From: Chiloscyllium plagiosum
Lineage: Eukaryota
Assembly (NCBI RefSeq): GCF_004010195.1
Contig: NC_057718.1
Coordinates: forward strand, 100,837,637 to 100,901,636
Direction of reading: 5' to 3'
DNA length: 64,000 nt
The notes beneath the pieces are model-generated. The model saw only the letters and a program-made list of their open reading frames with translations. It was not told where the DNA came from and did no database searches. Below, one piece after another: positions 526 through 60,734 of this stretch. Each line of letters begins with the position of its first letter. Position 1 is the first letter of the stretch. A program made the translations under genes and the position numbers.

Positions 526-739
526 AGAGAAAGTGAGGACTGCAGATGCTGGAGATCAGAGCTGAAAATGTGTTGCTGGAAAAGCACAGCAGGTCAGGCA
601 GCATCCAAGGAGCAGGTGAATCGACGTTTCGGGCATGAGCCCTTCTTCAGGAATGAAGGGCTCATGCCCAAAACGTCGATTCTCCTGCTCCTTGGATGCT
701 GCCTGACCTGCTGCGCTTTTCCAGCAACACATTTTCAGC
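526..739. mobile_element. PLE-derived inverted-repeat element, family 1, with hammerhead core
   Basis: ~90-bp arms in inverted orientation; TSD tgtgacgacaataa (512-525) / tgtgatgacaataa (740-753); minus strand reads CTGAAGA AGGGC tcat GCCC GAAACGTC. Confidence 0.85.
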
Positions 740-837
740 TGTGATGACAATAAGTCAAATCAAATTGTACCTCATTGAACAAGGCACAATTTTATCTGGG
801 ACTCAAGAATTTCAACAGCACAATCTGAAACCAAACT

Positions 838-1190
838 GGGAGGCATGGTGGCTCAATGGTTAGCACAGCTGCCTTACAGCGCCAGAGACCCGGGTTCAAT
901 TCTACCCTCTGGTGACTGTGTGGAGTTTGCACATTCTCCCCGTGTCTGTGTGGGTTTCCTCCGGGGGATCCTGTTTCCTCCCACAATCCAAAGATGTGCA
1001 GGTTAGTGAATTGGCCATGTTAGATTGCCCCATAGTGTTCAGGGATGTGCAAGTCAGGTGCATTAGTCAGGCCAAGTATAAAGTGATAAGGTGGAGAAAT
1101 GGGTCTGGGTGGGTTGCTCTTCGGAGGGTCGGTATGGACTTGTTGGACCTAATGGCCTGTTTCCACACTGTAGGGATTCTATGTCTATGT
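838..1190 (+). mobile_element. Full-length tRNA-derived V-SINE (HE1-like)
   Basis: A box (tggctcaatgg), B box (ggttcaattc), V-domain core gtgggtttcctccggg...tttcctcccaca, CR1-type tail ggcctgtttccacactgtagggattctatg. Confidence 0.88.
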
Positions 1191-1782
1191 GAATGACAGA
1201 CCAGGACCCCTCAATTTCTGTGTTAATCTGCATTTGCACTAAATCCTAAAGTTTCTGTCTGAGGGTTAACTATGACAAACCAACTTTTTAAGTTAATTTA
1301 AACAACTGATGTATAAATTGGAATCAAATACTGATATTATTGATCACTGTTAATTGCCTAGAGGAATCAGACTATTATCTGCAATTTTAAAGCAAAACAT
1401 AGTTTTTTTTTGTCTTTGTTTGTTTTCCTGTTCTTCTAAAGATGCTAATGCACTCATCCTCTGGATGTAGCACTATTACTCAGTTAGACAGCTATGGTTT
1501 GAAGCCATTCTCCAGGACTTGAATCCTTGACGTGATGACCAGATCATTTATCTTATTGCTATTTGAATGCACACCTGGAATAAAATCCAATACCTCACAC
1601 TGAAAAGGACAGTAGCCCTCCAGACAGGATGACTAATTCATTGTGTTTTTGTGTTGCTGCTACCACTGCAGGCACCTCATCCTGCATCTCATCCTCTTCC
1701 CCCATAACTTGGTCACATTGTTGTCATAATGTAGGAATGGAAATATTCACTGGACCCTCTAATACATGCTGAGTATTTATTT

Positions 1783-2601
1783 GGGAAGGCCAAGTGGTAT
1801 TATCGTTAGACTATTAATTCAGAGACCCAGATAATGTTCTGGGGAGCCAGGTTAAAATCCCACCATTACAGATGTTGGAATTTGAATTCAATATTTTTTT
1901 AAGATCTGCAATTAAGAATCTAGTGATGAATATGAAACCATTGTCGATTGTTGGAAAAACCCAATATTATCCTTCAGGGGAGGAAATTAGATTAGATTAG
2001 ATTAGATTACTTACAGTGTGGAAACAGGCCCTTCGGGCCAACAAGTCCACACCGACCCGCCGAAGCGCAACCCACCCATACCCCGACATTTACCCCTTAT
2101 TTAACACTATGGCCAATTCACATAACCAGCACATCTTTGGACTGTGGGAGGAAACCGGAGCACCCGGAGGAAACCCACGCCGACACGGGGAGAACATGCA
2201 AACTCCGTGCCATCCTCACCTGGTCTGGCCTACATGTGACTCCAGACCGACAGCGATGTATGGTTGACTCTCAACTGCCCTTTGAAATGGTCTAGCAAAC
2301 CATTCAGTTGTACCAGTCGCGACAAAGAAATGAAACCGCAAGAATCACCAGGCATGACCTCAGCACCACAAAAGACAAGGGGAGGTAACAACCCTGTTGA
2401 CCTGCAAAGTCCTCCTTGCTCTGGGTCAAAATCCTGGAAATCCCTCCCTAATGGCATTGTTGGTCAACTCACAGCAGGTGGATTGCAGCGTTTTCATGAA
2501 AGCAGCTCACCCCCTCCTTCTCAAGGGGCAACGAAAGGCGGGCAATAAATGCTGGGCCCAGCCAGCAACACCCACGTCCCAAAAAAATGAATAAATAAAA
2601 A
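1783..2601 (+). mobile_element. tRNA-headed SacSINE-like element with extended LINE-derived 3' part, split by an HE1 insertion
   Basis: Head and body match 23618-23940 and 42700-43050; body resumes at 2207 after the HE1 insert; 2420-2600 matches the LINE 3' end at 29878-30035. Confidence 0.75.
1987..2206 (-). mobile_element. 5'-truncated HE1-like SINE nested in a SacSINE-like element
   Basis: (gatta)n tail, cagtgtggaaacaggcccttcgg, V-domain reverse complement. Confidence 0.85.
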
Positions 2602-2676
2602 GGTCACCTTGAGTCTTGAATGGTGATATTGCAGGAGAACATCAGTTATCAACGTAACCTCAATTATGCTGATCAT

Positions 2677-3654: not shown

Positions 3655-4160
3655 AATATTCACTCCCTCCACCACCAACCTTTAGTAGCAGCAGTGTATA
3701 CGATCTACAAAGTACACTGCAGCAACTCAGCAAAGCTGCCTAGACATCACCTTCCAGACCCATGGCCTCTACAACTTTGAAGGTCAAGGGGAGCAGCTGC
3801 ATTCCCTCTAATATTTCCTGTGGCTTCACAGACCTCCAAGGTCTGAGTGTAGTTTCTATTGAACTGGAAGTCAGTGTGCCAATACTCTAACTGGGGTACA
3901 TTGACCCTCTGACTATGCAGCTTAGCGGGAGCATTGGGCAGCAGATACCTGGGACAACAACACCACCTACAAAGCCACACGCCATCCTGACTTGGAACCA
4001 TTCAACCGTTCATTCATTGGTGCTGGATTAAAGATTCTAGAAATCTCTCCGTAATAGCACTGTGGGTTTCCCAACACCACAAAGACTGAGGAAGGCTGCT
4101 CACCACCACCTGCTTCAGGGCAGTTGAGGATGGGCAATAATTACTGACCCAGCCAGTGAC
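3655..4160 (+). mobile_element. CR1/L2-group LINE ORF2 C-terminus and 3' tail (second LINE family)
   Basis: Matches 29560-30035 (VAAVYTIYKVHCSNS...); ends gggcaataa...ccagtgacacccacatcccatga. Confidence 0.75.
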
Positions 4161-6404: not shown

Positions 6405-6825
6405 TAAAATCTGGAATTAAGAGTCTAATGTTGATTGTTGGAAAAACTCATCTCGTTCGTTAATGTTCTTCAGGGAAGGAAATCTGCCATCCTTACCTGG
6501 TCTGGCCTACATGTGACTCCATGTGGTTGACTCTTAACTGACCTCTGGGCAAAGTGAGGACTGCAGATGCTGGAGATCAGAGTCGAAGAGTGTGGCGCTG
6601 GAAAAACACAGCCGGTCAGGCAGCATCCGAGGAGCAGGAGAATCAACGTTTCGGTCATAAGCCTGATGAAGGGCTTATGCCCAAAATGTCAACTCTCCTG
6701 CTCCTTGGATGCTGCCTGACTACCTATGCTTTTCCAGTGCCACACATTTTGACTCTGACCTCTAGATAATTAGGGATGGACAATAAATCCTGGCCCAGCC
6801 ACCACCGCCCACGTCCTGTGAATAA
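6405..6825 (+). mobile_element. SacSINE-like 3' part interrupted by a family-1 PLE hairpin element (~6550-6760)
   Basis: SINE body ends ...cctctgggcaa, then an inverted element with ctgatgaagggcttatgccc, then taattagggatggacaataaa resumes. Confidence 0.8.
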
Positions 6826-8572: not shown

Positions 8573-8711
8573 TGGTGTCGAAGTACAGGTGTTGGTCCGG
8601 GGCGGAGAGTACAAGGTCAGAAATCACACGACACCAGGTTACAGTCCAACAGGTTTATTTGAAATCACAAGCTTTCAGAGCGCTGCTCCTTCGTCAGGTG
8701 AAGTGTAACTT
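8573..8711 (-). mobile_element. PLE-derived element, family 2, single arm
   Basis: aatcacacgacaccaggttacagtccaacaggttt...agctttcagagcgctgctccttcgtcaggtg; TSD ctggttttgagata / ctggttttgggata. Confidence 0.75.
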
Positions 8712-8864: not shown

Positions 8865-9260
8865 AGGCTGGAGAAACTTAGCAGGTCAGGAAGCATCTGA
8901 GGAGAGAGAAACAGAGACAATCTTTGGGACTGGAGGGGTCTGGAAAATGATTTTTCTATGCCATTGACTAAGGGGGAGGAGGACCGATTGGAACAGACAG
9001 GGAGGGTGCCCAGAACAAAGACAAAGGGAGTGCCGATAGTGATAAATGAGAGATCTTGATGCAAAATAGGTGTTAATGGTAAGTGAGAATGGTTAAAAAT
9101 AGGTTGTCTTTGCTGAGAGCAAATAAGCCATCAGGAGGGGAAGGGAAGGGAGATGATCAAACTGGAGGACAATATTTATGTTCTGAAGTTGTTAGTTCCA
9201 TGTTGATTCCTGAAAGCTCTGAAGTGCTTAGGCAGAAAATGGGGTGCTGTTCCTGCAGCC
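8865..9260 (-). mobile_element. Penelope-like element 3' fragment (ORF end plus pLTR, family-3-like)
   Basis: Reverse of 9180-9255 reads EQHPIFCLSTSELSGINME, resembling the PLE GIY-YIG C-terminal EQHLIFRLGTLQPxGLN; followed by a pyrimidine tract and cagatgcttcctgacctgctaagtttctccagc. Confidence 0.6.
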
Positions 9261-9393: not shown

Positions 9394-9487
9394 AAGCTGA
9401 AACTTTATTGCTGGAACAGCACAGCAGGTCAGGCAGCATCTAGGGAACAGAAGATTCGACGTTTCGGGCACATGCCCTTCTTCAGGA
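9394..9487 (-). mobile_element. PLE family-1 single arm with intact hammerhead core
   Basis: Minus strand ctgaagaagggcatgtgcccgaaacgtcgaat; TSD ttttaagaaca at 9383 and 9488. Confidence 0.8.
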
Positions 9488-9878: not shown

Positions 9879-10631
9879 TGTAAAATTCTAGGAACTACCT
9901 TAACAGCAGGCATTAAATGCAAGTACAAAATTAAAATACTGTGGATGCTAGAAATTTGAAGTACGTGCAGAAAATTCTGGAACAAAAGCAGAAATTGCTG
10001 GAAAAGCTCAACAGGTCTAGAAGCATCCGTGGGGAGAAATTAGAGTTAATGTTTCAGGTTGAGTGAGTCTTCCTCAAAATTCTGGAAATGCTCAGGTATC
10101 ACCTGTGTAGGGGAGAACAGAGTTAATGACTCATTTTGGTCAAACCAGGACGAGAGTGAAAACTTCTTAATTCAAACACATTTGGGATCTCCCCCTGGTA
10201 TCTTCCCACTTGTTTTTGATGGCCAAATTATTGCTGCTTTCTGCTCTTAATTTATTAAAGACAATCACTGCACATCATGTTACGACCCATCTCACCATGC
10301 TACATCTGCATCGTTCCTCTTTACTTTCCCCATTTCTCGTAATTAGATTGTCAATACAATTGTACAATACACAGGAGGCTCTTCAGCCCATCAAGTCTGT
10401 ACTGCCCAAGCTATGCTAAATCTAAACAAGTCCCACTTTCCAGTGTTTGGCCCCAGAGCCTTGAATGTTATGATGTTTCAACATGGTCCTTCTGGCTGCA
10501 AGGTAGGGGCACTACCATAGGAACCCTAGGGTAATTAGATTTTGGGTAGATATTAGAGCAGCCTTGATTTTCATATGGAACACCTTCTGAGAATATTCAA
10601 ATCAGACACCTGCCTGTCAGATGAATCGATG

Positions 10632-11110: not shown

Positions 11111-11114
11111 TGTA

Positions 11115-15399: not shown

Positions 15400-15752
15400 A
15401 TCACCTATACTAGGAGAAAGTGAGGACTGCAGATGCTGGCGATCAGAGCTGAAAAATGTGTCGCTGGAAAAGCGCAGCAGGTCAGGCAGCATCCAAGGAG
15501 CAGGAGAATCGACGTTTCGGGCATAAGCCCTTCTTCAGGAATGACAGATCACCTTTACCTCCATCTCCATCCACCTATCACACTCAGCTATCTTCCCCCC
15601 CATCCCCACCCCCTCCCCACCCCCTCCCATTTGTCTCTCCACCCCTCCGGCTCCCAGCCTCATTCCTGATGAAGGGCTTTTGCTCGAAACATCGATTTTC
15701 CTGTTCCTCAGATGCTGCCTGACTTGCTGTGCTTTTCCAGCAACCCACTCTT
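15400..15752. mobile_element. PLE family-1 inverted element with longer sense arm
   Basis: Antisense arm 15412-15543, pyrimidine-rich sense arm to 15752; perfect 15-bp TSD gactataagacacag (15385, 15753). Confidence 0.85.
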
Positions 15753-17024
15753 GACTATAAGACACAGGAGCAGAGACAGGCCATTCAGCCCATAGAGCCT
15801 TCGTTTCCACCATTCAACAAGATCATAGTTGATCTGATCATCCTCGATTCCACTTTAGTAACCGAGGGGCTGCTAGTTTACCACTAAAATGCCAGCCAGG
15901 GAAGGGAAGCACTGGCTGGGTCTGACCTACATGTGGCTCCAGGACCATAGCAATGGAGCCAATCTCAGAATGCCCTCTGAAATGGCAGAGCAAAGCCACT
16001 TGATTTAGTGCAATTCGGGATGGGCTCATAAATACAGGCTCTTCCAGACAAATCAATGTCCCTGGCAAGAATGAAAAAAACAAACCCTCTCCCTTGCCCA
16101 CTAACCGGCTGGTGTCCATGACTAACTCATCAGCAATTTGGATGCAAATGTAATCACTATTTCAAGATTAAATGTGTGTGTTGCTGAGTGGATTGAGACT
16201 TCATTGTATTCACTCTGGGGGATAACGTTAACAGCCTGACCTGAAATTAAATTTTGTTTAAAAAATATCAGAGCCACCTGCAACAAACAACAGCCAGTCT
16301 TTTTAGGAGATTGGTCTCTTTCCAAAATCATCAATTTTATCTTAATTTTTATCCCTGTTTGGCGACGCATTTATTTACCAGGGACGACAGGCATGTTCAA
16401 ATTGAGGGAAATCTTCTGTCTGTCTCCTCCTTCTGCCATCTTTTAATCTTACTGAAAACAACAGGGCCCTGATCTAACTCTGGAGCTGCGTTACCAGTTT
16501 TCATACATTGAAGGAGTGTCAATTTTAGTCCATGTTTACCATCCTGTTAAATGTGCTGATTTCTCAGCTAATTGTAACAATTCTTGTTAAAATCCTAACA
16601 CGGCCTTTCTTTGAAGACAGTGGAGTCATTGTCATTCTCTCTGTACCTATTAAAATATATATACAGAAGGATTTAAACTTGAACGTAAGAGGAGTTGGAT
16701 GCAATTTGTCCTATTTATTTTGAAATGTGAAGAGGAGCATGTTGGGTGGTGATTAACCCCACCCCGATCCCCAGCGGTGAGATATGAACTTGATCACCCG
16801 CAGATCTGTTTGGGAAGAGCTGACAGGCAGAGCTCAGCCAAGATTTCCATCGGATCAAGGACCTCCAGGTTGGCCAACTGGGTCACCAGAAACTGCTGGC
16901 CAATCAGAGGCCAGTACCTCCTGGGTGCTGAGGGTGGTGGCCAGTTGCTTGGGAGATGACTGTGGATTCGTTTGGGTGGATTGGGGAGAGGTTCGTCAGG
17001 GGTCAGAGGCCAGGTTAGGGACAT

Positions 17025-17994: not shown

Positions 17995-18127
17995 AAATAA
18001 AAGCCAAATGAACTGCGAATCCCGTAAGTCAGAGACAAACTGTTCTGAGGAAGGGTCGCTCAGCCCGAAATGTTAACTTCGATTTCTCTCCACAGTTGCT
18101 GCCAGACCTGCTGAGCTTTTCCAACAA

Positions 18128-18171
<44 letters not shown>
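17995..18171 (+). mobile_element. PLE family-3 element plus (TG)n(AG)n microsatellite inside SINE-4
   Basis: gttctgaggaagggtcgctcagcccgaaatgttaac...cctgctgagcttttcca; host SINE resumes at ataacatctct. Confidence 0.65.
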
Positions 18172-18172
<1 letters not shown>

Positions 18173-18644: not shown

Positions 18645-18842
18645 TCTGATCAGGAGATGCTGTTGTCGGACTGGGGTGGACAAAGTTTAAAAACCACGCA
18701 ACACCAAGTTATAATCCAACAGGTTTAATTGGAAGCACTAGCTTTCAGTAGCTACCTGATGAAAGAGCAATGCTCCGAAAATTAGTACTCCAAATAAACC
18801 TATTGGACTATAACCAGGTGTTGTGTGGTTTTTGACGTTGTG
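18645..18842. mobile_element. PLE family-2 inverted element in an old CR1 remnant
   Basis: Inverted arms around ctgatgaaagagcaatgctccgaaa; TSD cacattcaga (18635, 18843). Confidence 0.8.
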
Positions 18843-20769
18843 CACATTCAGAACGTTCTCATGATTTGATCGACAAACACAGGGGAGGGTGGAATGAGTA
18901 TTGCTGCTGTGGGAAAAGCATTAGCAGAGAATGTCAAGGTGAGATAGTCAACAAAAGGAATTCAAAAGAAAAACCTTGACCCAGAGAGTAGTGAGAGCCT
19001 GGAACTGGCTAGTACAGAGGGTGGTTGGGGTGAAGGGTATTCAGATGAAACTGGATAAGTACGTGAGAGAGTAAGAACAGCAGGGAAGTCTGGGGTGCCC
19101 CAGATGTTAGGGTCCCAAAAGCATGACACTGTTATAGCTGGACCACATTAGTGAGATGCCTCCTATATTGAAGGAGCAAGATGAAAGTTTAAATAAAAAA
19201 TCATCTCTATGGAGAGCTGTGGGACCTTGACCATGAGATACGTTACAAACAAACTTGGGATATATTGAACCGCATGATAATGACCGATGTTAATGATCGA
19301 TTGAGAGGGATGGGACACTTGTGTGGAGCATCAACACTGACCTGGAAATTTCAGCAGAATGGTCTGTTCCTTCTTGCACCGTGAAACCTGTTTCTCTTCA
19401 TTACGTCCAATGATGAGATCGGATTTGGCCTGAACTGATCATTCAGAAACCTATTCCTTACCAGCACTGTCAACATATACCTGCAGTACATGCACTGTAG
19501 TGGTCCTAGAAGTTAGCTCATAATTACCTTCACCAGGGCACTTGAGGGTGAACGGTGAATGTTGGCCGAACTAGCAAATGCCATGATCTAATCTCTAAAG
19601 GAAATTCAGTTGCCCTATTAAATAAAAAAACACTAAAATAAATTTAATTAAATAAACACATCTTCCTTGTGTTACTGAGACATTCTTGATATTGCTCCTT
19701 TGAGGCGAAGCACTACTGTATCCCAGGGAGGTCGGGTTATTGTATCTGTAAGCCGAGGAAAATAAGTGCAGTTTGAAGGGTTTTCTTAAACAAGAACAAA
19801 TGTGCGTTTCTGTCCTAGTCGTACGGCCAGTTTTGGGCATGATGCTTTCTCCAGATGAGCTGAATCACAAAAACCACAAACATAATTCAATTCTATTTGC
19901 TCCTTACTTAGTTGCATTAATAATAGTCTGATGCGATGTCACCAGGTTGGGCTGGTATTGTTGCCTTAATTGAACAAAAACTCAAGCCGGGTCCGTTGAT
20001 TTCTTTTCAGCCAGTTTCCTCTTAAAACTTTGATTTGGGAGCTGACTTGGCAATGCCTGAGTGCAGATGGTTTAGCAGAACCTCACAATTCCTATTTGTT
20101 CTCCGTTGCAATGTTTCCTGTTTCCTATTTATCACCTTACATTTATCGACATTAAATATTCCTTCATCCATCAGATTAATTGATCTATAATTTTGTCAAT
20201 GATCTTTATACTCCTTTAGCTCCCGTCCTTACGAATCACCGTTAAAAATTTGGTATGGTCTCAGTAGTTATTGTTCTTTCAAGTCTAATGTGGATAAGGT
20301 GCTCTGTAAGAAACATGAAACCTGTTCTTATTCTGGAACTCTGCTAGTCCCCACTCCTAGATTAGCAGATTTTAAGTTACAAATTGCAGGGTCAGTTTTC
20401 AATACCAAGTTTCAATGTGCCATTAATTCTGCAAAATGTATTCCCCTTTGGGAAATCATAGAAAAATCCAAATAGGCTGAATCTCTCGTCTAATTGTTTG
20501 GTTACTGCCTCGAACAATTCCAACAATTTACTGAAACATAGCTTATCACTTACAAGTCCACACTAATTGCTGCTCATAGCCTCAGTGTTCTTTCGATTGG
20601 ATATTGATGGTTTTGAAAAAAATGCCATCAAGCAGTTTTTCATTTCAGATGTTTTTGGCTCCTTCTGTAATTTCAAACTTTATGTTTCGCTCCTGCACTT
20701 AACATTGGAACAGCCATTGTTGTCTTGGATGTAACCTCCTGTTACAAAACGCCAGAAATGCTAACTTTT

Positions 20770-21989: not shown

Positions 21990-22173
21990 AGATGAAAGAC
22001 TTAAGCTTAATTTGTTTAATATTACATTCCATTATACTGCAATCCTGTTGCTATAAAGTCTGTGTCTTAAGATTCTGCTCCACAACCACCTGATGAAGAA
22101 GTAGCGCTTTGAAAGCTAGTGATTCCAAATAAACCAGTTGGACTATAACCTGGTGTTGTGTGATTTTTAATTT
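21990..22173 (+). mobile_element. PLE family-2 sense arm with upstream TATA-like box
   Basis: tataaa at ~22052, then cacctgatgaagaagtagcgctttgaaagctagtg and the family-2 3' end gtgatttttaa. Confidence 0.7.
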
Positions 22174-23354
22174 TGTTAGGCAAAGGCATTAAGGGATATG
22201 AGCCAAAGGCAGGTATATGGTGTTAGGTCACAGATCATGATCTCATTGAATGGTGGAACAGACTTGAGGGGCCGAGTGGCCTCCTATTCCAATATACACC
22301 TAAAGAGTTAGGTTTGAATGACCCTTGCAAAATATTTTCATGGTAACATGCTGCAGATAGTTGTATATTGTCCATTCTTTTTCTGCTTCATTTGTCATTT
22401 CTGCTATGGTCCACCAACCAGAAGTTTAACTTTTCTGCACTCAAGAGTTTTCTTCTTGTTGACTTGGTGCTGTAGAATCAGCCACATTGTCTAAATAAGA
22501 CAGACTATAAAACGCTGGGGCCATCAAGCTACATCAGGGAAAGTAGTACTTCTTGTGTAACCCAGATCTGCCTGAATGGGTGTGCTTTCACAAAGCAGGT
22601 GTAGATATGGCAACACTGCAAACTACTGCTCACCAGAGGATGTAAACCAGCTGCAGGGGATTACAGCTCTGTAAAGTGACTTGATTTTGAGTGTATTAGC
22701 CATGGAAATGGCTGTGCTTAATCATTCCCACAGTGACGTGAGGTCTTTTGCCCTATTAACATTACCTCTCTAAAAGTGGTAGCTAAGTGTCTCCTCACCC
22801 CAGCCCTCCTCACTTCTGTTTAAATTTGTGTTGTGAAGTTTGCTGTCTCTCGGGCAGAGATTGTGTGGGTTTGGGCTGGTGGGTGGAAGTAGAGGGGTAG
22901 CCTGAGCATATCTGACCCCTTTTAATGCTAATCTTTGCAATCGCTATGCCTGCACCTTCACCCTTCACCTTTCACCATTACCCTGCTCTTGGCTAACCAC
23001 AGCTCCCTGTTGAAGAGAATAACTCTCACTGCCCCCATGCTCCCAATGAACTTGATTTTTCTAAAGTCAACCTCTCACCCCGGAAGTCTGCTGGCTGTCT
23101 GCTCTTTTTGTGTTCCTGTGTTATTTCCTTGTGCACTTTGAAGGATGAGTGTGGGTGTGTATGGTGTGTGTGAACCAAGTGTGTTCCATTCAAAAATTAG
23201 CTTTGCGAAGGTGTGTTCCACACTTCCTTACATGTGGTTGATCACTTAGAAGTCATCTGCATAGCCAAAGTGGTGCAAACTTCTGGATTTCTTCATGCAG
23301 TAACTAATTATATTTCCTTCCCTAATGATGGAAAAAAGCAATTCTTAAAAATTT

Positions 23355-28027: not shown

Positions 28028-28365
28028 CAGAGTGGTGCGTGTGTGGAATGAGCTGCCAGAGGAGGTGGAGGCGACTGGTACAATTGCAACAGTTAAAAAG
28101 CATCTGGATGAGTACATGAATAGAAAGGGTTTAGAGGGATATGGGCCAAATGTTAGCAAATTGGACTAGGTTAATTTAGGTTCGAGATTAGAGTGGTGCT
28201 GGAAAAACACAGCAGGTCAGGCAACATCTGAGGAGCAGGAAAATCGACGTTTCGGGCAAAAGCCCTTCATCAGGAATAGAGAGATTTAATAATTTAGGAT
28301 ACCTGGTTGTCATAGACAAGTTGGACAGAAGGGTCTGTTTCCATGCTATATATCTCTATGACTTT
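28028..28365 (+). mobile_element. CR1 3' end with nested PLE family-1 arm (28181-28289)
   Basis: CR1 tail split; TSD taatttagg (28172, 28290); intact minus-strand ctgatgaagggcttttgcccgaaacgtc. Confidence 0.85.
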
Positions 28366-28529: not shown

Positions 28530-28780
28530 AACGAGCTGAGAATGCTGAGCAGGTCTGGCACCATCTGTGGGGAGAAACAGAGTTAATGTTTCCAATCCAC
28601 TGACTCCTCTTCAAAGCTGGAAGGGAGAGATACCATTCTAGTCGCTGACCTGTGTTCTGAAGAAGTCACACTGGACTCGAAGTGGTAACTCTGTTTCTCT
28701 CTCCACAGATGCTGCAAAACCTGCTGAGTTTCTCCAGTGTTCTCCTGGTTCAGATTTCCAGTGTTTACAGTATTTGCCTC
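28530..28780. mobile_element. PLE family-3 inverted element
   Basis: gcaggtctggcaccatctgtggggagaaacagagtta ... taactctgtttctctctccacagatgctgcaaaacctgctg; central gttctgaagaag. Confidence 0.7.
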
Positions 28781-33715: not shown

Positions 33716-34330
33716 TGATTTGCTTTGATTTGATTTGATTTGATTTATTTTTGTTACATGTACCTAAGGGCAGTGAACAGTTTTGTTTTGCGAGCAGTAC
33801 AGGCAGATCATAGTAAACAAGGGCGTATAGAGAGAGATAGGCCTACAAGGTTACAGCTGCAAAGGAGGGGCACATAGCATGATCAACGTTATTGGAAATT
33901 AGAGAGGTCCATTCAGCCATCTAATAACAATGGGGAAGAAGGTGTAATTGAACTTGCTGGTACGGTGTGTTTCCATATCTTCTGCCTGATGGAAAAGGTT
34001 GGAAGCTAGCGTTACTGGGGTGAGTGGGGTCTTTGATGATGTTCGAGGAGAAAGTGAGGACTGCAGATGCTGGAGATCAGAGCTGAAAATGTGTTGCTGG
34101 GAAAGCGCAGCAGGTCAGGCAGCATCCAGGGAACAGGAGAATCGACGTTTCGGGCATAAGAAGGACTGAAGAAGGGCTTATGCCCGAAACGTCGATTCTC
34201 CTGTTCCTTGGATGCTGCCTGACCTGCTGCGCTTTTCCAGCAACATATTTTCATCTTTGATGATATTAGCAGCCATTCTACGGCAACTCACTGTTGTGTA
34301 AGGATCCTGGAGCAACCTTACAATATTGGC
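33716..34330 (-). mobile_element. Rex1/Babar-like LINE 3' end with nested PLE family-1 hairpin (34044-34253)
   Basis: (tttga)n tail; opposite-strand relative of 44808-45357; PLE TSD tctttgatgatgtt / tctttgatgatatt. Confidence 0.75.
34166..34197 (+). ncRNA. Minimal hammerhead ribozyme core (family 1)
   Basis: CTGAAGA A GGGC ttat GCCC GAAAC GTC; stem I partner lost at the inversion junction. Confidence 0.6.
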
Positions 34331-44419: not shown

Positions 44420-44775
44420 CTAGTTTCCTCATTTCCCCTCCCCCAACCTTACCCCAGTTCCAAACTTTCAGCTCAGCACCGTCCTCATGATCTGTCAATC
44501 TTTCTTCCCACCCATCCGCTCCACCCATCGTCCGACCTATTACCTTTACCCCTTCCTCCATCCACCTATTGCACTCTCAACTACCTTCTCCCCAGCCCCA
44601 CCCCCTCCCATTTATCTCTCCACCCCTGAAGCTTCCAGCCTGATTCCTGATGAAGGGCTCCTGCCCGAAACATCGATTTTCCTGCTCCTCGGATGCTGCC
44701 TCACCTGCTGTGTTTTTCGAGCACCACTCTAATCTTGACTCTAATCTCCAGCATCTGCAGTCCTCACTTTCACCT
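44420..44775 (+). mobile_element. PLE family-1 sense copy (pyrimidine tract, hammerhead, full 3' end)
   Basis: ctgatgaagggctcctgcccgaaacatc at 44647; ends cagcatctgcagtcctcactttcacct; TSD agcagtacag (44410, 44776). Confidence 0.82.
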
Positions 44776-44807
44776 AGCAGTACAGTCCTGCCTCAGCACA
44801 CACTGAA

Positions 44808-45357: not shown

Positions 45358-45690
45358 CAAGTGATGTTTCAAATCCTCAGAGAATTCTGAATCCATTTTG
45401 TCAAAGCGATGATCTGAATTTTCATAAGGCTCCTTTTCATTTCTGTACCTGTTTAAAAAAAGCTCTGAAGCCCGTGGCAGTGGCCTGGAGCTGCACTCTG
45501 AGATGTGAACGCATGGTTGATGCTCATTGTATTATTGTAATCCTCCACCCCCACCTGATGTGATGTTGGAAAAAATTCCCGGTATTGTTGGTTGGTGCAG
45601 AAGGTTCTCTGATTGTTCACTGCTGTTCCATTCTCATCTAAAAAAAGTAAATCCAAACCAAATCGCACAGTGCTAGAAACATGCAGGAGG

Positions 45691-45860
45691 CAAAGGTGAG
45701 GACTGCAGATGCTGCAAACCAGAGTCTAGATTAGAATGGTGCTGGAAAAGTACAGCAGGTCAGGCAGCATCCGAGCTTTTGCCCGAAACGTCAATTTTCC
45801 TGCTCCTCGGATGCTGCCTGACCTGCTGTGCTTTCCAGCACCACTCTAATCTAGACTCTG
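45691..45860. mobile_element. PLE family-1 inverted element (centre deleted)
   Basis: 15-bp TSD gaaacatgcaggagg (45676, 45861). Confidence 0.82.
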
Positions 45861-49075: not shown

Positions 49076-49080
49076 ATAAC

Positions 49081-49210
49081 TAGGAGAAAGTGAGGACTGC
49101 AGATGCTGGGAATCGGAGTCGAGAGTCTGGTGCTGGAAAAGTACAGCAGGTCAGGCAGCATCCGAGGAGCAGGAGAATCGACGTTTCGGGCAAACGCACT
49201 TCATCAGGAA
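49081..49210 (-). mobile_element. PLE family-1 single arm
   Basis: TSD tgctgctcataac / tgctgctcacaac; hammerhead core on the minus strand. Confidence 0.8.
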
Positions 49211-50364
49211 TGCTGCTCACAACGAAAAGGTCACCATCACCTGTCAGCTCACAGCTCCCAACTCCAAACCAAAACAATGATAAAAAAGAAAAACAGCAAG
49301 GGATCTAAGACCATTCATTTCAATAGTAGATATCCGTGGAGTAAAATGCCTTGTTTTGAGAGTTCATCCATAAAGTTCCGATTATTGTCTCCCCTTTAAG
49401 ACAGTGGCTCAAATTGGATGCTTTCTTGCAAGCACTCATGGATTGTGGTGACTTTGCTTGAGTGGTCATCGTCTGTGTGAGATGAAACAAGTATTGTTAT
49501 TTGTTCGGGAGGGGCGGAGGTGGTCTAGAGGGAGCACTAATAAGCTTCTCCATCTCCCAGTGTCTGCTGGACCTGATATATGTAATTGATAGATCTTTCT
49601 GGCCTTGTGCATCAGTACCAGTATGGGCTTTGCACCTCTCTGTATCTGCAATACTCTTCAGTTCTGCAACCCTATCAGATCTGTGCAGTCCTCCAATCCT
49701 GGCCTCCCGGGATGTCCCCAGGTTTAAGCACTCCATGTTGATATCTGTGTACTCAGCCTGCCTGCTTCTCCTCTTTTAAGGTTTTCCTTAAAACTTACCC
49801 GTCTGAGTATCTCCATGTGATTTGATATCAGATTTTATTTGATTGTTCCTGCGATGTGCTTATTGTTATCATTATAATTGTCATTATTATTTTAGTGTAT
49901 GAAAGGCAGTATATAAATGCCCAGATGGTTGTTGCTGAGGAGATAGGGTTTCTTTAAAATAAATGAACTTCTGAACATATGAACATGTGAATTCCCAGCA
50001 GAATTAGGCCTCTTGACTTCTCGAGTCTGCTCTGACATTCAGTAAGATTATCAGAATGGGTTGAATTATCTACTTCAGCTCCTATTTCGTATGTTCCTAG
50101 AAGTGTAACGTCTGATTTTAAAATAGAGTGCCCAAGCTTTGGACTCACCCATAGGAGGAAACACCTTTTCCACTTCTGCCTTGTCAAGATCAGTCAAGAC
50201 TTCAAATTTTCATCAATCACCCCTCGCTCCTTAAAGCAAGCTCAGTCTCTCTGAGCCAACCTGCTCATTCCAGCAATCGATCTACTCCAATGCATTTACA
50301 TTCTTCCTTAACAAAAGGGACCAAAACTGCACACACTGTTGGAGATGCAATCTCACTAATCATA

Positions 50365-52077: not shown

Positions 52078-53539
52078 ACAAATTAGTGTTACTGTACAGC
52101 AAATGATCGCTGCATCTGGGGGAGGTGAGTGCATGTTCCCAGCCTAACCCCTGAGCTATGCCTTTGTGCATGGAATCTATGTGAGACTGAATTAGAGAGA
52201 CTTCTGATTGACAAAGATGAATGGGGAAGTGGAGTTCAGGCAAACAATCAAAGGGGGTTCCGGTTAGGTCCTTATGAATGAAGATCCCAACTCCCAAACC
52301 TAAACTCGGCCAAGCACAAGAAGGAGATCGCATTCTTTGCAAAGTCAGAATCTGGACGGGACAGAGGGGCAAAAGGATCTGGGAGTACAAATACACAGAT
52401 CACTAAAAACAGCAACAGAGACCTCTGAAGGCCAATGGTACAGAGCAAGCCAAGTGATTTCGAGAAGGATAGAATTCAAAAATGGTTAAGTGATGCTAAA
52501 CCTGTATTAAACCTTGGTATGACCATACTTGGGAGTGCTAGGTGCAGTTCGAGTAGCCATATTCCATTTGGTACTGGAGTGGTTGAGGAACAAAGCTAAT
52601 ACTGGAATTGTGAAGCTATAGTTAAGAGATGAATGATGTGCCCTTCTCCCTTCAAAAGGCAAATTAATTGAAATCTTAAAAATTGTGGGAAGTTTTGATG
52701 GAGTAATTGGCCATAAGACAATGGAGCAGAAGTAGGCCATTCAGCCATCAAGTCTGCTGCACCATTCAATATTATCATGGCTGATCTGATATTCCTATAC
52801 ACCACCTCCTGCCTTTCCCCCTTGATACTCTTCCTGATGAAAATATACCTGTCTCAGCCTAGAATGTACTGAGTGACCCAACCTTGACAGCATTCTGCAG
52901 TAAAGTATTCCAAAGACTCATAGAAAATAAAAATCATCCTCAGCTCTGTCTTAAATGTGTGACCCCTAACTCTGAGCATATGTCCTCTGTTCTTTGACTG
53001 CCACAAGGGGAAACAACATCTCTACATCCATAATGTCAAATTCCCTAAGAATCGTCTGTGCTTCAATAAGATCTCGTCTACTGCTTTGTATTTTATATAC
53101 ACATGGCTCCCTGTTTAAGGCCCCTTGGCTATTGTCAACAGGATTCTTCCATCTACGACAGAAAAGCAAAACAGTCCAGATGGTGGAAATTTGAACTGAA
53201 ACCAGAAAATGCTGGAAATGCTTAGCAGGTCAGGCAGAAATAGAGAATTCCACCTGTGGGAAAGAGCACAACTAGAGGCTATTACTTCAAGATTGTCATC
53301 AAGAAATCAAATAGATAATTAAAAAGAATTGTGTATTCCCAGACAGCGGTAAGCATGTGGAAATCACCATTAGTGACTGAGTGTAGATACGTACAAGTAA
53401 GAGCTAGAGAACTGCATGAGGCATTGAGGAAAAGTAAGTTGTACTAACGGAACCCTGGCAGCATTTTCTTAAAATTCATCTGTGGGAGGTGAGTTTGACT
53501 GGCTGGCCAGCATTTATTGCCTGTCTCTCGTTGCCCTTG

Positions 53540-53725
53540 CTCTGTGGAGAGAAAGCAGAGTTAGAATTTCGAGTCCGGCAACCTTTGTTTGGAACATTCT
53601 GAAGAAGGATCACTGGACTTGAAACGTTAGCTCTGTTCCTGTTATCACAGCTGCAGTCAGACCTGCTAAGTTTCTCTAACAATTTTTGCTTCTGCTTCAG
53701 ATCTTCAGCACCGGCAATTCTTTGC
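53540..53725. mobile_element. PLE family-3 inverted element
   Basis: ttctgaagaaggatcactggacttgaaacgttagc core; further copies near 9925-10130, 34680-34775, 54790-54890, 62390-62540. Confidence 0.65.
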
Positions 53726-54281: not shown

Positions 54282-54487
54282 CTGAAAATGTGTTGCTGGA
54301 AAAGCGCAGCAGGTCAGGCAGCATCCAGGGAGCAGGAGAATCAATGTTTCAGGCATGAGCCCTTTTTCAGGCTCATGCCCAAAATGTTGATTCTCCTGCT
54401 CCTTGGATGCTGCCTGACCTGCTGCGCTTTTCCAGCAATACATTTTTCAGCTCTGATCTCCAGCATCTGCAGTCCTCAATTTCTCCC
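54282..54487. mobile_element. PLE family-1 inverted element
   Basis: 14-bp perfect TSD tatagtaaacagtg (54268, 54488); tail on the right arm. Confidence 0.85.
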
Positions 54488-56474
54488 TATAGTAAACAGT
54501 GGCCTGCTGTACATGATTACAGGTTGTTGAGCTCTGTGCTCACCTTGGAGAACAAATGGATTTTAACACTAGAATTTTCAGAAAGTGTGACATTTGAAGT
54601 GTTGTTTCCAAACCCACAACCTCCACCATCTGGAATGCACATACATGGGCACACCATTTTCCCTTGCTGGTCTCGCACCATCCTGATGGTTAGAGTTGCC
54701 AACGATGCTTATATCCCATTAAAAAAAATATTAAAAACCTTTGGATCGTAAGGCCTCAGGCAGGTGTATAAACATTCTATACTTAGCTTCCGGCTGAGGA
54801 AGGGTCTATCAATCTGAAACGTTAACTCTGATTTCTCTTCACGGTTGCTACCAGACCTGCTGAACTTTTCCAGCAAATTCTGTTTTTGAGTAGACATTCC
54901 ATGCCCTTAAAAACATGTGTTTTCATTTAAATCAGATAACAAGTTGGTTTAACAACCACTGCATTGTCCTTGATGGTGGGGGCACTTGTTTTCCACTGTA
55001 CAAGTGCTCCTTGAATTTCACTTGTTCAATTTATGATTTGTCAATAATAAACAGCAGTTCGGAGTACCAGGCTGAAGAATTCAATATGCACTATTTGCCT
55101 CATTCTGAATGAGTTGTTGCACTCAAAAACAATTTATTCTAATTCAGAAAGTGGGATCAATAATTATTTTCCAAAATATTGTGTTTTTTTTAGTGCAGTT
55201 AGCTCAGTTATTGATGTGAGAAGTTGCTTGCTTGGCATTTTTGATTAAAATCTGTGATTGAGAGAATTGCCAAAGATTTACAGCAAAGAGACAGAGCATG
55301 TGGCTCAAATAGTCAGAGTTTATGCTCCAAATATGTTGTTTCCATCTTTCCCAGGCTAAACCAGTAAGCAAAGCCTTTTATTCCTTTCCCCATTTTCTGC
55401 TTATTTTGACTCCCCTTAACTGCATTGGTTCTGTTCACTACTGCTGTTCCCAAAAGCAGTGAATTCCATATTTCTAACCACCTTTTGGGTAAAGAATTTT
55501 CTCCTGAATTCCCTTGGTTTTGATAAATAGTGTAGGTTTATTACATAATAGTTGGTAGCTAGTTATATTTCAAGTGAATACATAATCATCTCTTGTGAGA
55601 CATAAGACTCGACTCAAAAGTACATATTAATGGTATCAGTGTGAACTGGATTGAATTTGTTAATAACTATTATAAAGCACCAGAAGTATAAACATATAAT
55701 GGAAGGTTCTCTTGAATTGATGATGTTTCTTCATTCTACAGAAAATCTCTTCTTTATGCCTTATGTGAAAGTAATGTTGGATTTGACACGATTCCTGTGC
55801 TTACAGTCTACATACAGTACTATTTACTCCATGGTAATTAAATCTGTGCATGCAGTAAAATCTCAGATAACACTTTATTGGGTTTTTCCCTTTCAAATTC
55901 AAGTTGTAAGTAAGTTGGGTTTCTCATTCCCACCAAAGCAGTGAGCATTTATGCTCCATTTGATGAGATGGGATGAAAGATACAGCGGAGATCAGTGTGG
56001 GAAGATGTGCTAACACCTCTTGACAGGAGCTGTCTGCTCAAGCTGTCTCAACTACTGGTGCCTTTTTCACCCTGCTCTGTTACTTCCCCTGAAAACACAC
56101 TTTAGAGGTGAAGTAATTCTTTCAAGCCAGCCAGGGTGACAAATGTTATCAGCTCTTGATTTTTAAAATCTCATTGAAGTATTTGGAAACAATAGATGCC
56201 GATAGGTGCCTCACACCTTTTCACTGACAGTGTCACATCTGTGAACTAATTTCTTTACATAAGCATTAGCAATAAAACAGGCAGCACATTGTGCTTGTAA
56301 AACTGAGAGGCGACGTACCCTGGAATAGGTTTGTGAGGTCCATACAACAGCATGGGAAAATGTGTAAAATAAAGACAACAGTACTTCAAGGAATTTGTTT
56401 TTAATCCATATTAAATCATCTTTAAGAGATGCCATTCTCTGAAAGATGCCATTCATTCGGCCATGTAAAATATT

Positions 56475-56880: not shown

Positions 56881-57105
56881 GGCCATGTAAAATATTAACA
56901 AGGAACCATGATTAACTTTAAGTTCCCCTCCTTGTAATTAATAGTTTAAATGCTAATATCTGTGAAGGCCTCAGGAGATAATCACTGAGATCTGCTTTTC
57001 CTGATGATTATATTCATGATCGTTTTGGCAAATGACTCAGCAAAAAAAAAGCACAAAACAAAGATATTTTCTAATCAGTATGTTCAGAGATTTCATTACA
57101 CATGG

Positions 57106-58299: not shown

Positions 58300-58985
58300 A
58301 AAGAACAATACAGGCCCTTCGACCCTCCAAGCCTGCGCCGACATATTTTACTAAAATTGCCTTCACTTACAGGATCCGTATCCCTCTATTCCCTTCCTAT
58401 TCATGATTTGGAGATGCCGGTGTTGGACTGGGGTGTACAAAGTTAAAAATCACACAACACCAGGTTAAAGTCCGACAGGTTTAATTGGAAGCACACTAGC
58501 TTTCGAAGCAACGCTCCTTCATCAGGTAATATCAGCTGATGAAGGAGCGTCGCTCCGAAAGCTAGTGTGCTTCCAATTAAACCTGTTGGACTATAACCTG
58601 GTGTTGTGTGATTTTTAACTTCCTATTCATGTATTTATCTGGGTACTTCTTGAATGCTGCTATTGTGTCTGCTTCCACCACCTCATATTGCAGTATGTTC
58701 CAGGCACTCACCACCCTTTGTGTGAAAAACCTGCCCCACGCATCTCTTTTAAACTTGTCCCCTCCGCACCTTGAACCTGTGTCCCCTAGTAATTGACCAC
58801 TCCACCCTGGGAAAAAAGCCTCATATTTTCCACTCTGTCCATGCCATTCCCAATCTTATAAACTTCTATCAGGTTGCCTCTCAACCTCCTGCGTTCCAGT
58901 GAAAACAAACCCAGTCTGTCCAACGTTTCTTCAACACTTAAATTCCCCCATACTGGGCAACATCTTGTACCCTCTCCAAAGCATT
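58300..58985 (-). mobile_element. CR1 variant 3' fragment with nested PLE family-2 hairpin (58406-58618)
   Basis: TSD cttcctattcatg (58393, 58619); near-perfect inverted arms. Confidence 0.85.
58533..58567 (+). ncRNA. Minimal hammerhead ribozyme core (family 2)
   Basis: CTGATGA A GGAGC gtc GCTCC GAAAG CTA gtg. Confidence 0.65.
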
Positions 58986-59166
58986 TTATTAATGAGTCTT
59001 ATTTATCCCCTCCTAAGGAGACAGTCAGCTAGCTCAGTTGGCTGGATAGCTGGTTTGTGATGCTGAGTGATGTCAACAGCATGGGATTTAGTTCCTGCAT
59101 TGGCTGAGATTACCATGAAGATCCTGCCTTGTCAACCTTTCCCCTTGTCTGATGTGTGGTGATCCT

Positions 59167-60090
59167 TTTTATTTCACAAATATGCTTTATTCATAAAAAT
59201 CTTTGTATACATACACAGTCAGTAGAGTGGTTTGTTTCTGTACACAGTGTTTACATATAGAACAAATAAACCCAAACGCAAGACTATGCTTGCATACATT
59301 TTGAGGGACTGAGAGGGTCTGATAACTGTATGGGCCCCATTTACCTTCTGCAGGAAGACCTCAGATGGTGGTCTTTCCCCACCGTGCCTTGGTGACAGCT
59401 GCTCCAGACTTTAGTGCGTCCCTCAGTACGTAGTCCAGGACCTTGGAGGGTGCCAGTCTGCAACACTTGGTCAGAGCCAACTTCTTGCTCTGTAAGGCCA
59501 ACAAGTTTCGGGCAGACCAAAGAGTGTCTTTCACCGAGTTGATGATCCTCCAGGTGCAGTCGATGTTTGTCTCGGTGTGTGTCCTGGGGAACAGACCGTA
59601 GAGCACAGAGTCCTGCGTCACGGAGCTGCTTGGGTGATCCTCAACATAAACCACTCTATTTCTCTGCAGCTTTGCTTTGCAAAGGTACATTGCAGTAGGA
59701 GAACTGTGATAGTCTCTACCCCCCACGGCCATTTTGAGGGCAGCGTGTGGTAGTGCGGAGAATCCGGGCATATGTGAAGGATCTCACCATCAGCCAAGCA
59801 ATGTCTTGGTGCTTGTCAGAAAGTTCAGTGACGGGGCATTCTGCCCAATGACTTTGACCGTCTGCTCAGGGAACAACCCGACAGAATCCACCCTCTCCTT
59901 TTCCTGCATCTCGAAGATTATGCAGTGCTGACCACCTCCTGATGGACATGTGGACAAAGGTGTTTTTCTTTGCAAGTTTGTCCACGTGGGACTGATGATA
60001 CAGAACAGTCCCACTACTTGGATCATTCCACGGCAGCTAGGTCAGGCTCATCCTTCGCAACACCGGGGACAGGTAGAACCTCAGTACGTA
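59167..60090 (-). mobile_element. Tx1/L1-clade LINE 3' fragment (internally deleted) inserted in SINE-3
   Basis: ORF 59361-59771: QDSVLYGLFP...WRIINSVKDTLWSARNLL...YVLRDALK...RWGK; aataaa and A-rich tail at left; TSD gtgatcct / gtgaccct. Confidence 0.8.
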
Positions 60091-60528
60091 GTGACCCTCA
60101 GATTAAACCACCACCAGATGTGTACTCTAATGATAGAACAGACCTATGATCCATGTCAGACTATGGTGACCTTACCTATCAGACTAAGTGGTACTTTGTT
60201 TCTAGGTTGGTGACTTTAATTGTGAGAGCGAGACCATGTGGAAACTATACCTCAAGGTTTTCTCATTTTGTTAACATGTCTTCTAGATATTCACACTTTA
60301 TGCACCCACCAATCTTTCTCATTGCCTGTCTCTACATTATTTAAATGGAAATGTGAATCGTAAAGCCCACCAATATTTGCCATTCTCTCTCTTACAAGTA
60401 ATTTTCATGTAATTATTTATCTAAATCTGGAATGATCAATATTTATTTGTGTTTTATGATGCTGGAGCAATTTTTGCACCATCTCAGCTGACCACACTAG
60501 ACTATTCACAAGTATGATCCTGATCATG

Positions 60529-60734
60529 ATTTGGAGATGCTGGTGTTGGACTGGGGTGTACAAAATTAAAAATCACACAACACCTGGTTATAAACCAACA
60601 GGTTTAATTGGAAGCACACTAGCTTTCGGAGCGACGCTCCTTCATCAGGTGATGACGGAGCGTCGCTCCGAAAGCTAGTGTGCTTCCAATTAAACCTGTT
60701 GGACTATAACCTGGTGTTGTGTGATTTTTAACTT
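60529..60734. mobile_element. PLE family-2 inverted element
   Basis: 14-bp TSD tgatcctgatcatg (60515, 60735); almost identical to 58406-58618. Confidence 0.87.
60617..60651 (-). ncRNA. Complete minimal hammerhead ribozyme (family 2)
   Basis: Minus strand: CAC CTGATGA A GGAGC gtc GCTCC GAAAG CTA GTG; stem I CAC/GTG, stem II 5 bp, AGCT palindrome. Confidence 0.7.

Follow-up and report, generated by a model that had tools for sequence, protein, structure and literature searches.

What produced the short ribozyme-bearing repeats that crowd this stretch of Chiloscyllium plagiosum DNA (64,000 nucleotides, analysed as a whole and called the window here), and what set their ends? We defined a hammerhead descriptor as CUGANGA, a stem II of at least 3 pairs and GAAA-NN-UH, leaving helix I out, and searched 827,127 non-N bases comprising the window and 80 evenly spaced 10-kb stretches. 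The search returned 82 matches, including 17 from the window; the 10 dinucleotide shuffles gave 0-5 each. An extra nucleotide stood after A9 (between 9 and 10.1) in 77 of the 82 and was A in 67, and positions 15.1-16.1 read ACGU in 40, AGCU in 10 and the CpG-decayed ACAU or AUGU in 22; a preliminary description of this DNA, which had reported hammerhead motifs with an extra A following CUGANGA and an ACGU or AGCU palindrome for helix III, is borne out on these points. Among the 72 distinct matches, the palindromic 15.2-16.2 that replaces helix III was CG in 30, GC in 10 and CpG-decayed CA/TG in 22, and pair 10.1-11.1 was G-C in 47 and G-T in 23. Watson-Crick pairs in helix I were formed at 2.1-1.1 in 55, at 2.2-1.2 in 61 and at 2.3-1.3 in 28; these first three pairs exceeded all 2000 shuffles with several pair types, which amounts to covariation in a comparison that does not control for relatedness of the copies, and pairing at helix I positions 4-6 was not above all 2000 shuffles of the same matches. 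An Rfam scan found no hammerhead family at E 10, and the palindromes gave microRNA-hairpin look-alikes below gathering score. Judged by their sequence, the motifs are the known minimal type-I hammerheads of Penelope-like elements (PLEs). As in published PLE minimal hammerheads, we see the type-I core, the extra nucleotide between 9 and 10.1, G10.1-C11.1 and the palindromic 15.2-16.2, as well as several consensus families per genome, mostly as solo motifs of truncated PLEs with some dual motifs on opposite strands. Unlike them, the repeats here extrapolate to about 0.9 million arms, against 4,000-9,000 motifs counted by a different method in coelacanth and Xenopus, and in the published description the motif is not located at any transcription start.

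The three families named in the preliminary description were found at all 18 of its loci, and all three run on into reverse transcriptase (RT) and GIY-YIG frames. Motifs read by eye in the frames of families 1, 2 and 3 gave an RT followed by a C-terminal GIY-YIG, upstream of the pLTR, the longest stretches recovered extending as far as the RT core. The family 1 ORF matched Pfam GIY-YIG (E 0.014) and RVT_1 (E 0.006), both failing the cut-off; the family 2 ORF (L047) was 34% identical to that of family 1 over 98 aa (blastp, E 8e-14), and Pfam and PDB searches with it returned nothing relevant. This contiguity, with the helix I covariation, upholds the PLE origin proposed earlier. A CX2-5CxxC linker precedes GIY-YIG in each family (CHCRNCKTC-type in family 1, CHGGRCKMC in family 2, CNCxRCNTC-type in family 3); such a linker is given as defining the Neptune/Nematis clades (PMC8557442), and by this motif the families are assigned to Neptune/Nematis-type Penelope-like retrotransposons. 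They had been called unrelated, which does not hold for two of them: identity between families 1 and 3 is 71.5% in a 130-nt stretch at the ribozyme and 71% in 375 nt of ORF, and family 2 gave no blastn match to either. By these alignments families 1 and 3 are sisters, making two lineages rather than three.

The window holds about 25 insertions (35 arms), and the density is therefore about 1 per 2.6 kb, close to the 1 per 3 kb estimated before. Coordinates below are window positions, and C3 denotes the position of core C3. Family 1 forms head-to-head pairs with arms on both strands at 526..745 (left long arm antisense, right short arm sense; 13-bp target duplication; minus-strand core intact, C3 650), 6550..6765 (decayed cores), 34044..34262 (intact core at 34166, without the helix I 5' strand), 45688..45859 (without CUGANGA) and 54283..54486 (14-bp duplication, decayed cores). 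Its solos, all on the minus strand, are short arms at 9394..9487 (target duplication; intact core, C3 9485) and 28176..28277 (hammerhead intact, C3 28273), long arms at 15410..15544 (intact hammerhead, C3 15538; 15-bp duplication) and 49077..49217 (beginning at the initiator-like A discussed below; 14-bp duplication, damaged stem II), and an old family 1-like copy at 61874..61951. The arm at 15410 is nested in the 5' junction of an older plus-strand copy that reads through upstream of its hammerhead (15545..15760, C3 15666, helix III decayed). A longer, 5'-truncated plus-strand copy (44420..44777) carries the end of the GIY-YIG ORF, a 3' UTR and a long arm with tail, with TTATCT at 44612-44617, the initiator-like A at 44643 and C3 at 44647. 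Family 2 contributes a minus-strand solo long arm (8573..8701, hammerhead near-intact, C3 8697, 5' end about -4), an older pair (18645..18845) and two young pairs, 58406..58621 (12-bp duplication) and 60529..60734 (13-bp duplication; minus-strand hammerhead intact, C3 60648), each pair spanning both strands; its plus-strand read-through copy at 22013..22176 keeps a promoter-like layout (TATAAA 22052-22057, initiator-like A 22082, C3 22090, AATAAA 22128-22133). Family 3 is represented on the plus strand by solos at 18035..18145 (C3 18045, decayed helix III), 34662..34782 (decayed), 53597..53723 (long arm, decayed) and 54794..54888 (short arm, intact core, without the helix I 5' strand), on the minus strand by an old fragment (8867..8928), a decayed copy (9973; 9921..10079) and a fragment (53179..53237), and on both strands by a decayed pair (28535..28737). 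The preliminary description was silent on head-to-head pairing, target-site duplications, the two 3' ends and six further copies (those starting at 8867, 9921, 34662, 45688, 53179 and 61874). In many of the copies that it did name, the core, stem or helix III is broken; by our reading only 5 of its 9 family 1 loci retain ACGU together with an intact core. Reading by eye the 18 open frames of at least 130 aa, we recognised no host exon.

These repeats, which we call stubs, consist of 85-135 bases of PLE terminal repeat and are very abundant, a single family 2 40-mer having 22,421 exact matches genome-wide. Their 3' ends are bimodal in each family, at about +80-97 and +122-135 from C3, giving short and long arms. 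About half of the arms sit in head-to-head pairs with 10-16-bp target duplications (detected in 31 of 38 family 2 pairs), and the pairs nearly always join one long and one short arm: 36/38 in family 2, and in the unselected sample 11/11 for family 2 and 32/36 for family 1, with family 3 obeying the rule in only 6/10. For part of the solos, too, target duplications confirm that the boundaries are true. We conclude that the stubs are short, dead insertions of the pLTR of three PLEs.

Their 5' ends pile up 4-8 nt before CUGA, not at the ribozyme cut site. Of the 143 family 1 arms in the unselected sample, 75 have their end at or before +8 and do not extend upstream, 30 are read-through and 38 end further down. 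The pile-up coincides with an initiator-like A (at -4 relative to CUGA in families 1 and 3, at -8 in family 2) about 30 nt after a TATA or TATA-like box, most stubs ending a few bases downstream of that A. In read-through copies, TATAA(A/T) lies 27-33 nt before the A in 46/50 of family 2 and 28-29 nt before it in 15/30 of family 3, and TTATCT lies 29-32 nt before it in 52/66 of family 1. The family 1 box is not a canonical TATA. Because the box lies upstream of their 5' end, the stubs lose it. An apparent -8 peak of 5' ends in family 1 was corrected, being partly a subfamily alignment artefact. A splice-acceptor origin of the boundary was rejected, since none of the three families has AG immediately in front of the A. 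In a fourth hammerhead family, TATAAA lies 48-53 nt upstream but there is no pile-up: all 25 copies among the matches listed (one locus twice) reach at least about 35 nt upstream of CUGA.

We then counted by hand the base preceding the A in the first 100 of the matches listed, excluding templated C. In family 2 (1,477 matches) it was G in 78, A in 8 and T in 14, against G 18, A 20 and T 62 for copies starting at -9 and G 31, A 28 and T 41 for those starting at -6 (Fisher P about 4e-7 for the G excess against each control). Family 3 gave G 49, A 21 and T 30, and family 1 gave G 16, A 5 and T 2 in 23 CTGAAGA rows, after 77 rows of a subfamily with templated T had been set aside. A script check of family 2 found G at 57 of 69 loci, just one of these being read-through; 25 of the 57 share the G with the end of the inverted mate and 26 have it within junction-inserted bases; clean solo cases are few, and the window's own copies show no clear extra G. 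A subfamily with templated G was rejected as its source, since only 9 read-through copies genome-wide carry that G against roughly 1,150 G-starting ones (78% of 1,477). The G excess is absent from read-through copies (9 G, 10 A and 57 T of 76), and none of the 6 loose ends listed (126 further) showed a poly(A) pile inside the family 1 arm; strand transfer of cap-copied cDNA into long copies is not supported. The coincidence of the pile-up with the initiator-like A, the TATA or TATA-like spacing and the extra G is new here.

Since most stubs stop at a promoter-like start just before the ribozyme, usually with an extra G in family 2, they were likely copied from the capped 5' part of the element's own mRNA, rather than being separate ribozyme-bearing elements; we think it probable that most are run-off cDNA of the first 90-140 bases of that message. 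Transcription would start at the initiator-like A, and the hammerhead would therefore be the first structure of the mRNA. The element's protein would nick both target strands, reverse transcription would be primed internally, at the two start sites near +80-97 and near +122-135, and the cDNA would run off the capped end, adding C. The cDNA end would be joined either to the target, giving a solo, or by microhomology to a second cDNA, giving a head-to-head pair; read-through RNA, primed within a downstream pLTR, would give rise to the longer copies. In retroviruses, priming near the RNA 5' end yields a short discrete product, the strong-stop DNA. In full-length L1 insertions, run-off at the capped 5' end leaves an extra, cap-derived G (PMC11702581). 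Unlike either, the stubs would be primed by nicked target DNA at internal sites and their short product integrated. Several points count against the cap run-off reading, among them that an RT may append C to uncapped as well as capped RNA, that the fourth family has no pile-up, and that Penelope of D. virilis is described with a TATA-less internal promoter and an intron before the ribozyme (PMC2377424). RNA reads from a related species (a fragmented poly(A) single-cell library) also showed no read-start pile.

That ribozyme cleavage generates the template's 5' end is scarcely credible. A few arms do end at +26..+31 (6/143 in family 1; 2/36 in family 2, where ends at +31 derive partly from a 2-nt subfamily indel; 0/56 in family 3), but these counts are about the background of neighbouring positions and the main pile lies 30-40 nt upstream with the whole core kept, so that the 5'-end distribution of the unselected sample largely refutes cleavage-defined ends. 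The 5' strand of helix I coincides with the boundary as well, and the protein of PAc, a Poseidon element of Anolis, is reported to bind this region and assist the ribozyme (PMC11167929); an uncapped RNA end or a ribozyme-set RT stop, with a 5'-3' nuclease trimming to helix I or bound PLE protein, or the RT stalling, and terminal transferase adding C, could thus be imagined. We consider this unlikely: G is favoured at one position only (-8, not -9 or -6), in three families the boundary falls on an initiator-like A with TATA spacing, and a stall within the template would not favour G. A somewhat better chance, though still a minor one, attaches to an account of the pairs only, in which a single cDNA, folding back through a micro-hairpin at the edge of the ribozyme, self-primes and copies itself, and the endonuclease trims the tail of one arm, with no joining of two primed cDNAs. 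Self-priming has been proposed for head-to-head PLE junctions (PMC3846280), some junctions resemble tiny hairpins (the 60529 copy), and the long-plus-short rule would be simply accounted for. However, solos occur with either end (31 long and 44 short in family 1), both ends correspond to RT start sites used in vitro by PAc (PMC11167929), and at one pair (L321) each of the arms stops at -8 and a G stands on either side.

The preliminary description had instead regarded the repeats as self-propagating non-autonomous elements, SINE- or retrozyme-like, that plant active self-cleavage sites on both strands of host pre-mRNA. Their very high copy number and discrete size speak for this, read-through copies retaining a TATA box could be sources in trans, and animal retrozymes have been argued to derive from PLE pLTRs (bioRxiv 2026.07.22.740005). 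We nevertheless hold it to be very unlikely, and self-propagating non-autonomous families are not supported: junctions vary among the 38 family 2 pairs, no subfamily with a junction or flank in common across loci was seen in a small sample, stub lengths grade continuously into the ORF, the upstream box is missing from the stubs, and the window copies are solos or head-to-head pairs, with no tandem head-to-tail units among them. The family 1 core is about as worn as its neighbours (identity 0.96 against a downstream median of 0.95), the corresponding values for family 2 (0.98 against 0.90, 20 arms) and family 3 (0.93 against 0.88, 16 arms) being subject to alignment bias. About half of the motifs are locked in hairpins. 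The copies with cuts predicted at 34193 and 58564 have the right core, but positions 2.1 and 1.1 hold A-G and G-G instead of a pair, and both copies are embedded in long hairpins (-168 and -157 kcal/mol); energy folds of monomers and cofolds recovered the hammerhead fold only to stem II, such folding not modelling the core. Such motifs are reported to be inactive as monomers (PMC4209133) or protein-assisted (PMC11167929). Because most copies are decayed or hairpin-locked and, in a related species, polyadenylated family 2 RNA runs across the cut site largely uncut, cleavage of host pre-mRNA by the stubs is unlikely. The ribozyme is a passenger in the stubs, whose ends are not set by its cleavage.

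The run-off reading finds parallels in known systems. PAc Poseidon is described with two internal RT start sites flanking a 'tail', both strands being cut and extended in vitro, with insertion needing no ribozyme cleavage and RNA reads showing no ends at the cut (Frangieh et al. 2024, PMC11167929); unlike PAc, of the Poseidon clade, the families here carry the CX2-5CxxC linker, and the main text on PAc describes neither cap-site run-off nor a long-plus-short pairing rule. Canonical PLE insertions likewise have an inverted 5'-truncated pLTR adjoining the 5' end, and a putative TATA plus Inr was noted before in a rotifer pLTR (Arkhipova et al. 2013, PMC3846280; Craig et al. 2021, PMC8557442). 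They are reported with a 30-40-bp tail at one end only and 8-10-bp duplications, whereas here we find mostly a ribozyme-to-tail module, 10-16-bp duplications and a position-specific extra G. Animal non-LTR retrozymes share the type-I hammerhead and the kinship to PLE pLTRs, but are head-to-tail tandem units by definition (bioRxiv 2026.07.22.740005), unlike the solos and head-to-head pairs with target duplications seen here. More speculatively, and with the odds against it, the pLTR might be laid out like a retroviral LTR, with a promoter, a cap-proximal hammerhead (in family 2 with a poly(A) site at +57/+60) and RT start sites; two mRNA 5' ends might make a kissing contact by way of the palindromic helix III and supply a protein dimer, which would prime a long and a short cDNA on the two nicked strands. 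The ribozyme fold would then be an RNA dimerisation and decapping switch, and close to a million stubs would be fossil strong-stop DNAs that pinpoint the start site at single-base resolution.

Published accounts (PMC8557442, PMC11167929) describe as unclear both what PLE hammerheads do and how PLE insertion proceeds. Should the stubs be cap run-off products, the genome alone would reveal, for vertebrate Neptune-type elements, where transcription starts, the two sites at which RT begins and the stagger of the cut. It would also show that the template is not produced by ribozyme cleavage, and would put the ribozyme in the first bases of the message, so that cutting there would take off the cap. 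About 2-3% of the genome would then be explained as by-products, to be annotated as PLE ends and not as MITEs, SINEs or microRNA hairpins.

We searched the window and 80 evenly spaced 10-kb stretches of the 3.56-Gb genome (827,127 non-N bases in all) with a minimal-hammerhead descriptor, numbering positions from the first base of the CUGANGA core (C3 = 0); the predicted cut falls after +27 or about there in families 1 and 3 and after +28 in family 2. The descriptor matched 82 times, against 0–5 times in 10 shuffles, so the minimal hammerheads noted in the preliminary description are real, and every locus it named holds the family assigned to it. The extra nucleotide was present in 77 of the 82 matches, and two features outside the descriptor also hold: 15.2–16.2 is palindromic, and helix I has three base pairs drawn from several pair types (shuffle test, whose significance is overstated because the copies are related). 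Extra nucleotide, palindrome, and short helix I are all given as traits of the minimal hammerheads of Penelope-like elements (PLEs) in the available text of PMC4209133. No hammerhead model matched at E 10 in an Rfam scan of the window.

The same element origin had been proposed for all three families, and it is borne out by their upstream sequence. A genome search with the long family-1 copy at 44420 returned loci reaching 0.2–1.4 kb upstream into reverse transcriptase (RT), cysteine-linker, and GIY-YIG frames (Pfam support for the RT and GIY-YIG frames being weak); family 3 copies are likewise contiguous with such frames, as is family 2 at one locus of the genome (L047), where the connection bridges a gap in the assembly of its microsatellite. 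All three families have the CX2-5CxxC linker by which the Neptune and Nematis clades are recognized (PMC8557442, in part) and so belong, on sequence, to one or other of these two clades. The families had been called unrelated, which does not hold for families 1 and 3: these share 71% DNA identity in ORF and arm and are by that measure sisters, while family 2 gave no blastn match to either. The motifs are real and belong to a known kind of element.

The unselected sample contained 237 arms, solo or paired (147, 35, and 55 in families 1, 2, and 3), of which the window contributes 35. The 202 arms in the 763 kb outside the window extrapolate, roughly, to ~0.9 million arms or 2–3% of the genome, and one family-2 40-mer has 22,421 exact genome matches. 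Many window copies have broken hammerheads. By our reading of alignments and descriptor matches, two solo arms in the window are fully intact (C3 at 15538 and 28273, both on the minus strand); three are nearly intact (C3 at 9485 and 8697, minus strand, and 22090, plus strand), and the intact arms with C3 at 650 and 60648 are part of hairpins with predicted folding energies of −180 and −146 kcal/mol. Helix I is retained in the copies at 22082–22135 (plus strand), 15495–15542, and 28230–28277 (both minus strand), but not in those with cores at 34166 and 58536. The palindromic pairs are 90-bp near-perfect hairpins that could enter small-RNA or editing pathways; those at 58481–58580, 60604–60693, 34121–34217, and 6631–6704 score with microRNA precursor models below the gathering threshold, and such pairs will mislead microRNA annotation. 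The window also holds many CR1-like LINE 3′ fragments and SINE copies (repeat families D1, D3, D5, and D8–D12), one group at 148–391, 26365–26837, 40935–41196, 47322–48318, and 57037–57462 and another at 2062–2215, 4359–4588, 12224–12396, 42170–42378, and 51848–52073; these families are presumably those named HER1 and HE1. A 140-aa open frame at 59361–59783 resembles, by eye, the C-terminus of L1/Tx1-type ORF2.

The 5′ ends of the arms pile up at the ribozyme's front edge rather than at its cut site. With upstream subfamily differences corrected and 5 arms of family 1 that fall at gaps or edges excluded, 75 of 143 family-1 arms end at or before +8, 30 read through, and 38 stop further down (6 of them at +26 to +31); the corresponding numbers are 17, 8, and 11 of 36 in family 2 and 34, 1, and 21 of 56 in family 3. 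Read-through copies carry an initiator-like A at −4 in family 1 (TCATTC) and family 3 (TCAGTT) and at −8 in family 2 (CCACAA). It is preceded by TATAA(A/T) at 27–33 nt in 46 of 50 family-2 and at 28–29 nt in 15 of 30 family-3 read-through copies, and by TTATCT at 29–32 nt in 52 of 66 from family 1. TATA and initiator elements have a known consensus, with 30 nt from TATA to start; the family-2 copy at 22013–22176 displays this layout directly.

The base before this A, when not the templated C, is often G. Hand counts among the 100 family-2 matches listed of 1,477 gave G 78, A 8, and T 14, against G 18 and A 20 for starts at −9 and G 31 and A 28 at −6 (Fisher P ~ 4e−7). Among the family-3 matches listed the counts were G 49, A 21, and T 30, and one family-1 subfamily had G 16, A 5, and T 2 in 23 rows, leaving out 77 rows with CTGATGA, mostly with templated T. 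A script check found G at 57 of 69 family-2 loci, in approximate classes 25 common to the mate's end, 26 junction-inserted, 5 solo, and 1 read-through. An extra G in full-length L1 insertions is a known mark of a copied cap (PMC11702581, in part).

The 3′ ends are bimodal, at about +80/+128, +84/+122, and +97/+123–135 in families 1, 2, and 3, as expected of the two RT start sites flanking the PLE tail (PMC11167929, in part). Solos use either end. Head-to-head pairs hold 114 of the 237 arms and mostly join a long to a short arm (32/36 pairs in family 1, 11/11 in family 2, 6/10 in family 3). The long-short combination recurred in 36 of 38 pairs of a second family-2 set, drawn from 90 matches listed of 22,421 (85 loci after 5 overlaps were dropped, two further overlapping loci being double-counted among solos). 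Target duplications of 10–16 bp accompany 31 of these 38 pairs. No two pairs need share a junction, since junctions vary across the set; every pair was hence assembled as it inserted. At family-2 loci L421–L460 short templated repeats of ribozyme-edge sequence are frequent at pair junctions and resemble synthesis-dependent end joining. At L232/L233 the long arms (−352 and −154) of a head-to-head insertion of family 2 flank sequence resembling the ORF of another PLE family. At 15393–15767 a young family-1 solo is nested where an older copy of that family has its 5′ junction, and the two carry separate 15-bp duplications.

We consider it probable that the stubs arise by run-off at the cap. Transcription would begin at the initiator A, the element protein would nick both target strands 10–16 nt apart, reverse transcription would be primed close to the mRNA 5′ end, at the start sites of the long and the short arm, and cDNA synthesis would run off the capped RNA end, the cDNA ends then being joined to the target or to one another. 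Longer copies would require RNA that reads through into a downstream pLTR and is primed there. For the joining step, fold-back self-priming (PMC3846280, in part) may apply instead, and a strand-transfer extension of the run-off model was looked for without finding support. A fourth hammerhead lineage outside the window (L082:2788–2818, L100:5697–5727, L117, L094, L090, and L316) has an extra U after A9, a 6-bp stem II, two subfamilies, and TATAAA 48–53 nt upstream. It shows no 5′ pile-up at the ribozyme edge in 25 copies among those listed, which counts against the generality of the run-off model. Also against its generality is Drosophila virilis Penelope, described in PMC2377424 and PMC4209133, each in part, in which the promoter is TATA-less and an intron precedes the ribozyme. 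Earlier papers already describe the hammerhead motif and its origin in PLEs, as well as the tail and the inverted arm; cap-site run-off stubs, the extra G, and the long-short rule for PLEs returned no description in a literature search thin on subscription papers and supplementary figures. The proposed cap run-off is one testable mechanistic addition to a known kind of element.

About 2% of a single-cell poly(A) run from a related species (X22) was sampled, and its reads were mapped to a family-2 pLTR. Reads ending in poly(A) numbered 292 at +57 and 417 at +60, ~20 nt after an A(A/T)TAAA hexamer; the site comes before both RT start sites. In that species' RNA the poly(A) signal of the family-2 arm is functional (locus L035:1543–1566, equivalent to 22128–22150 in the window). 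Depth in the same orientation was 867–951 over the ribozyme, 1067–1119 directly after the cut site, and 313 beyond the poly(A) site; most such family-2 RNA therefore spans the ribozyme uncut. Many copies across the genome are the source of these reads, and host promoters may drive their transcription. For family 1, reads mapped to both strands, and the loose read ends shown include no poly(A) pile; neither family has a read-start pile in the RNA mapping. Self-cleavage of host pre-mRNA, the function proposed in the preliminary description, is unlikely, given that family-2 poly(A) RNA mostly spans the ribozyme uncut. Ending of host transcripts by the family-2 poly(A) signal is a more plausible host effect, and tens of thousands of sense family-2 copies could terminate host transcripts in this way.
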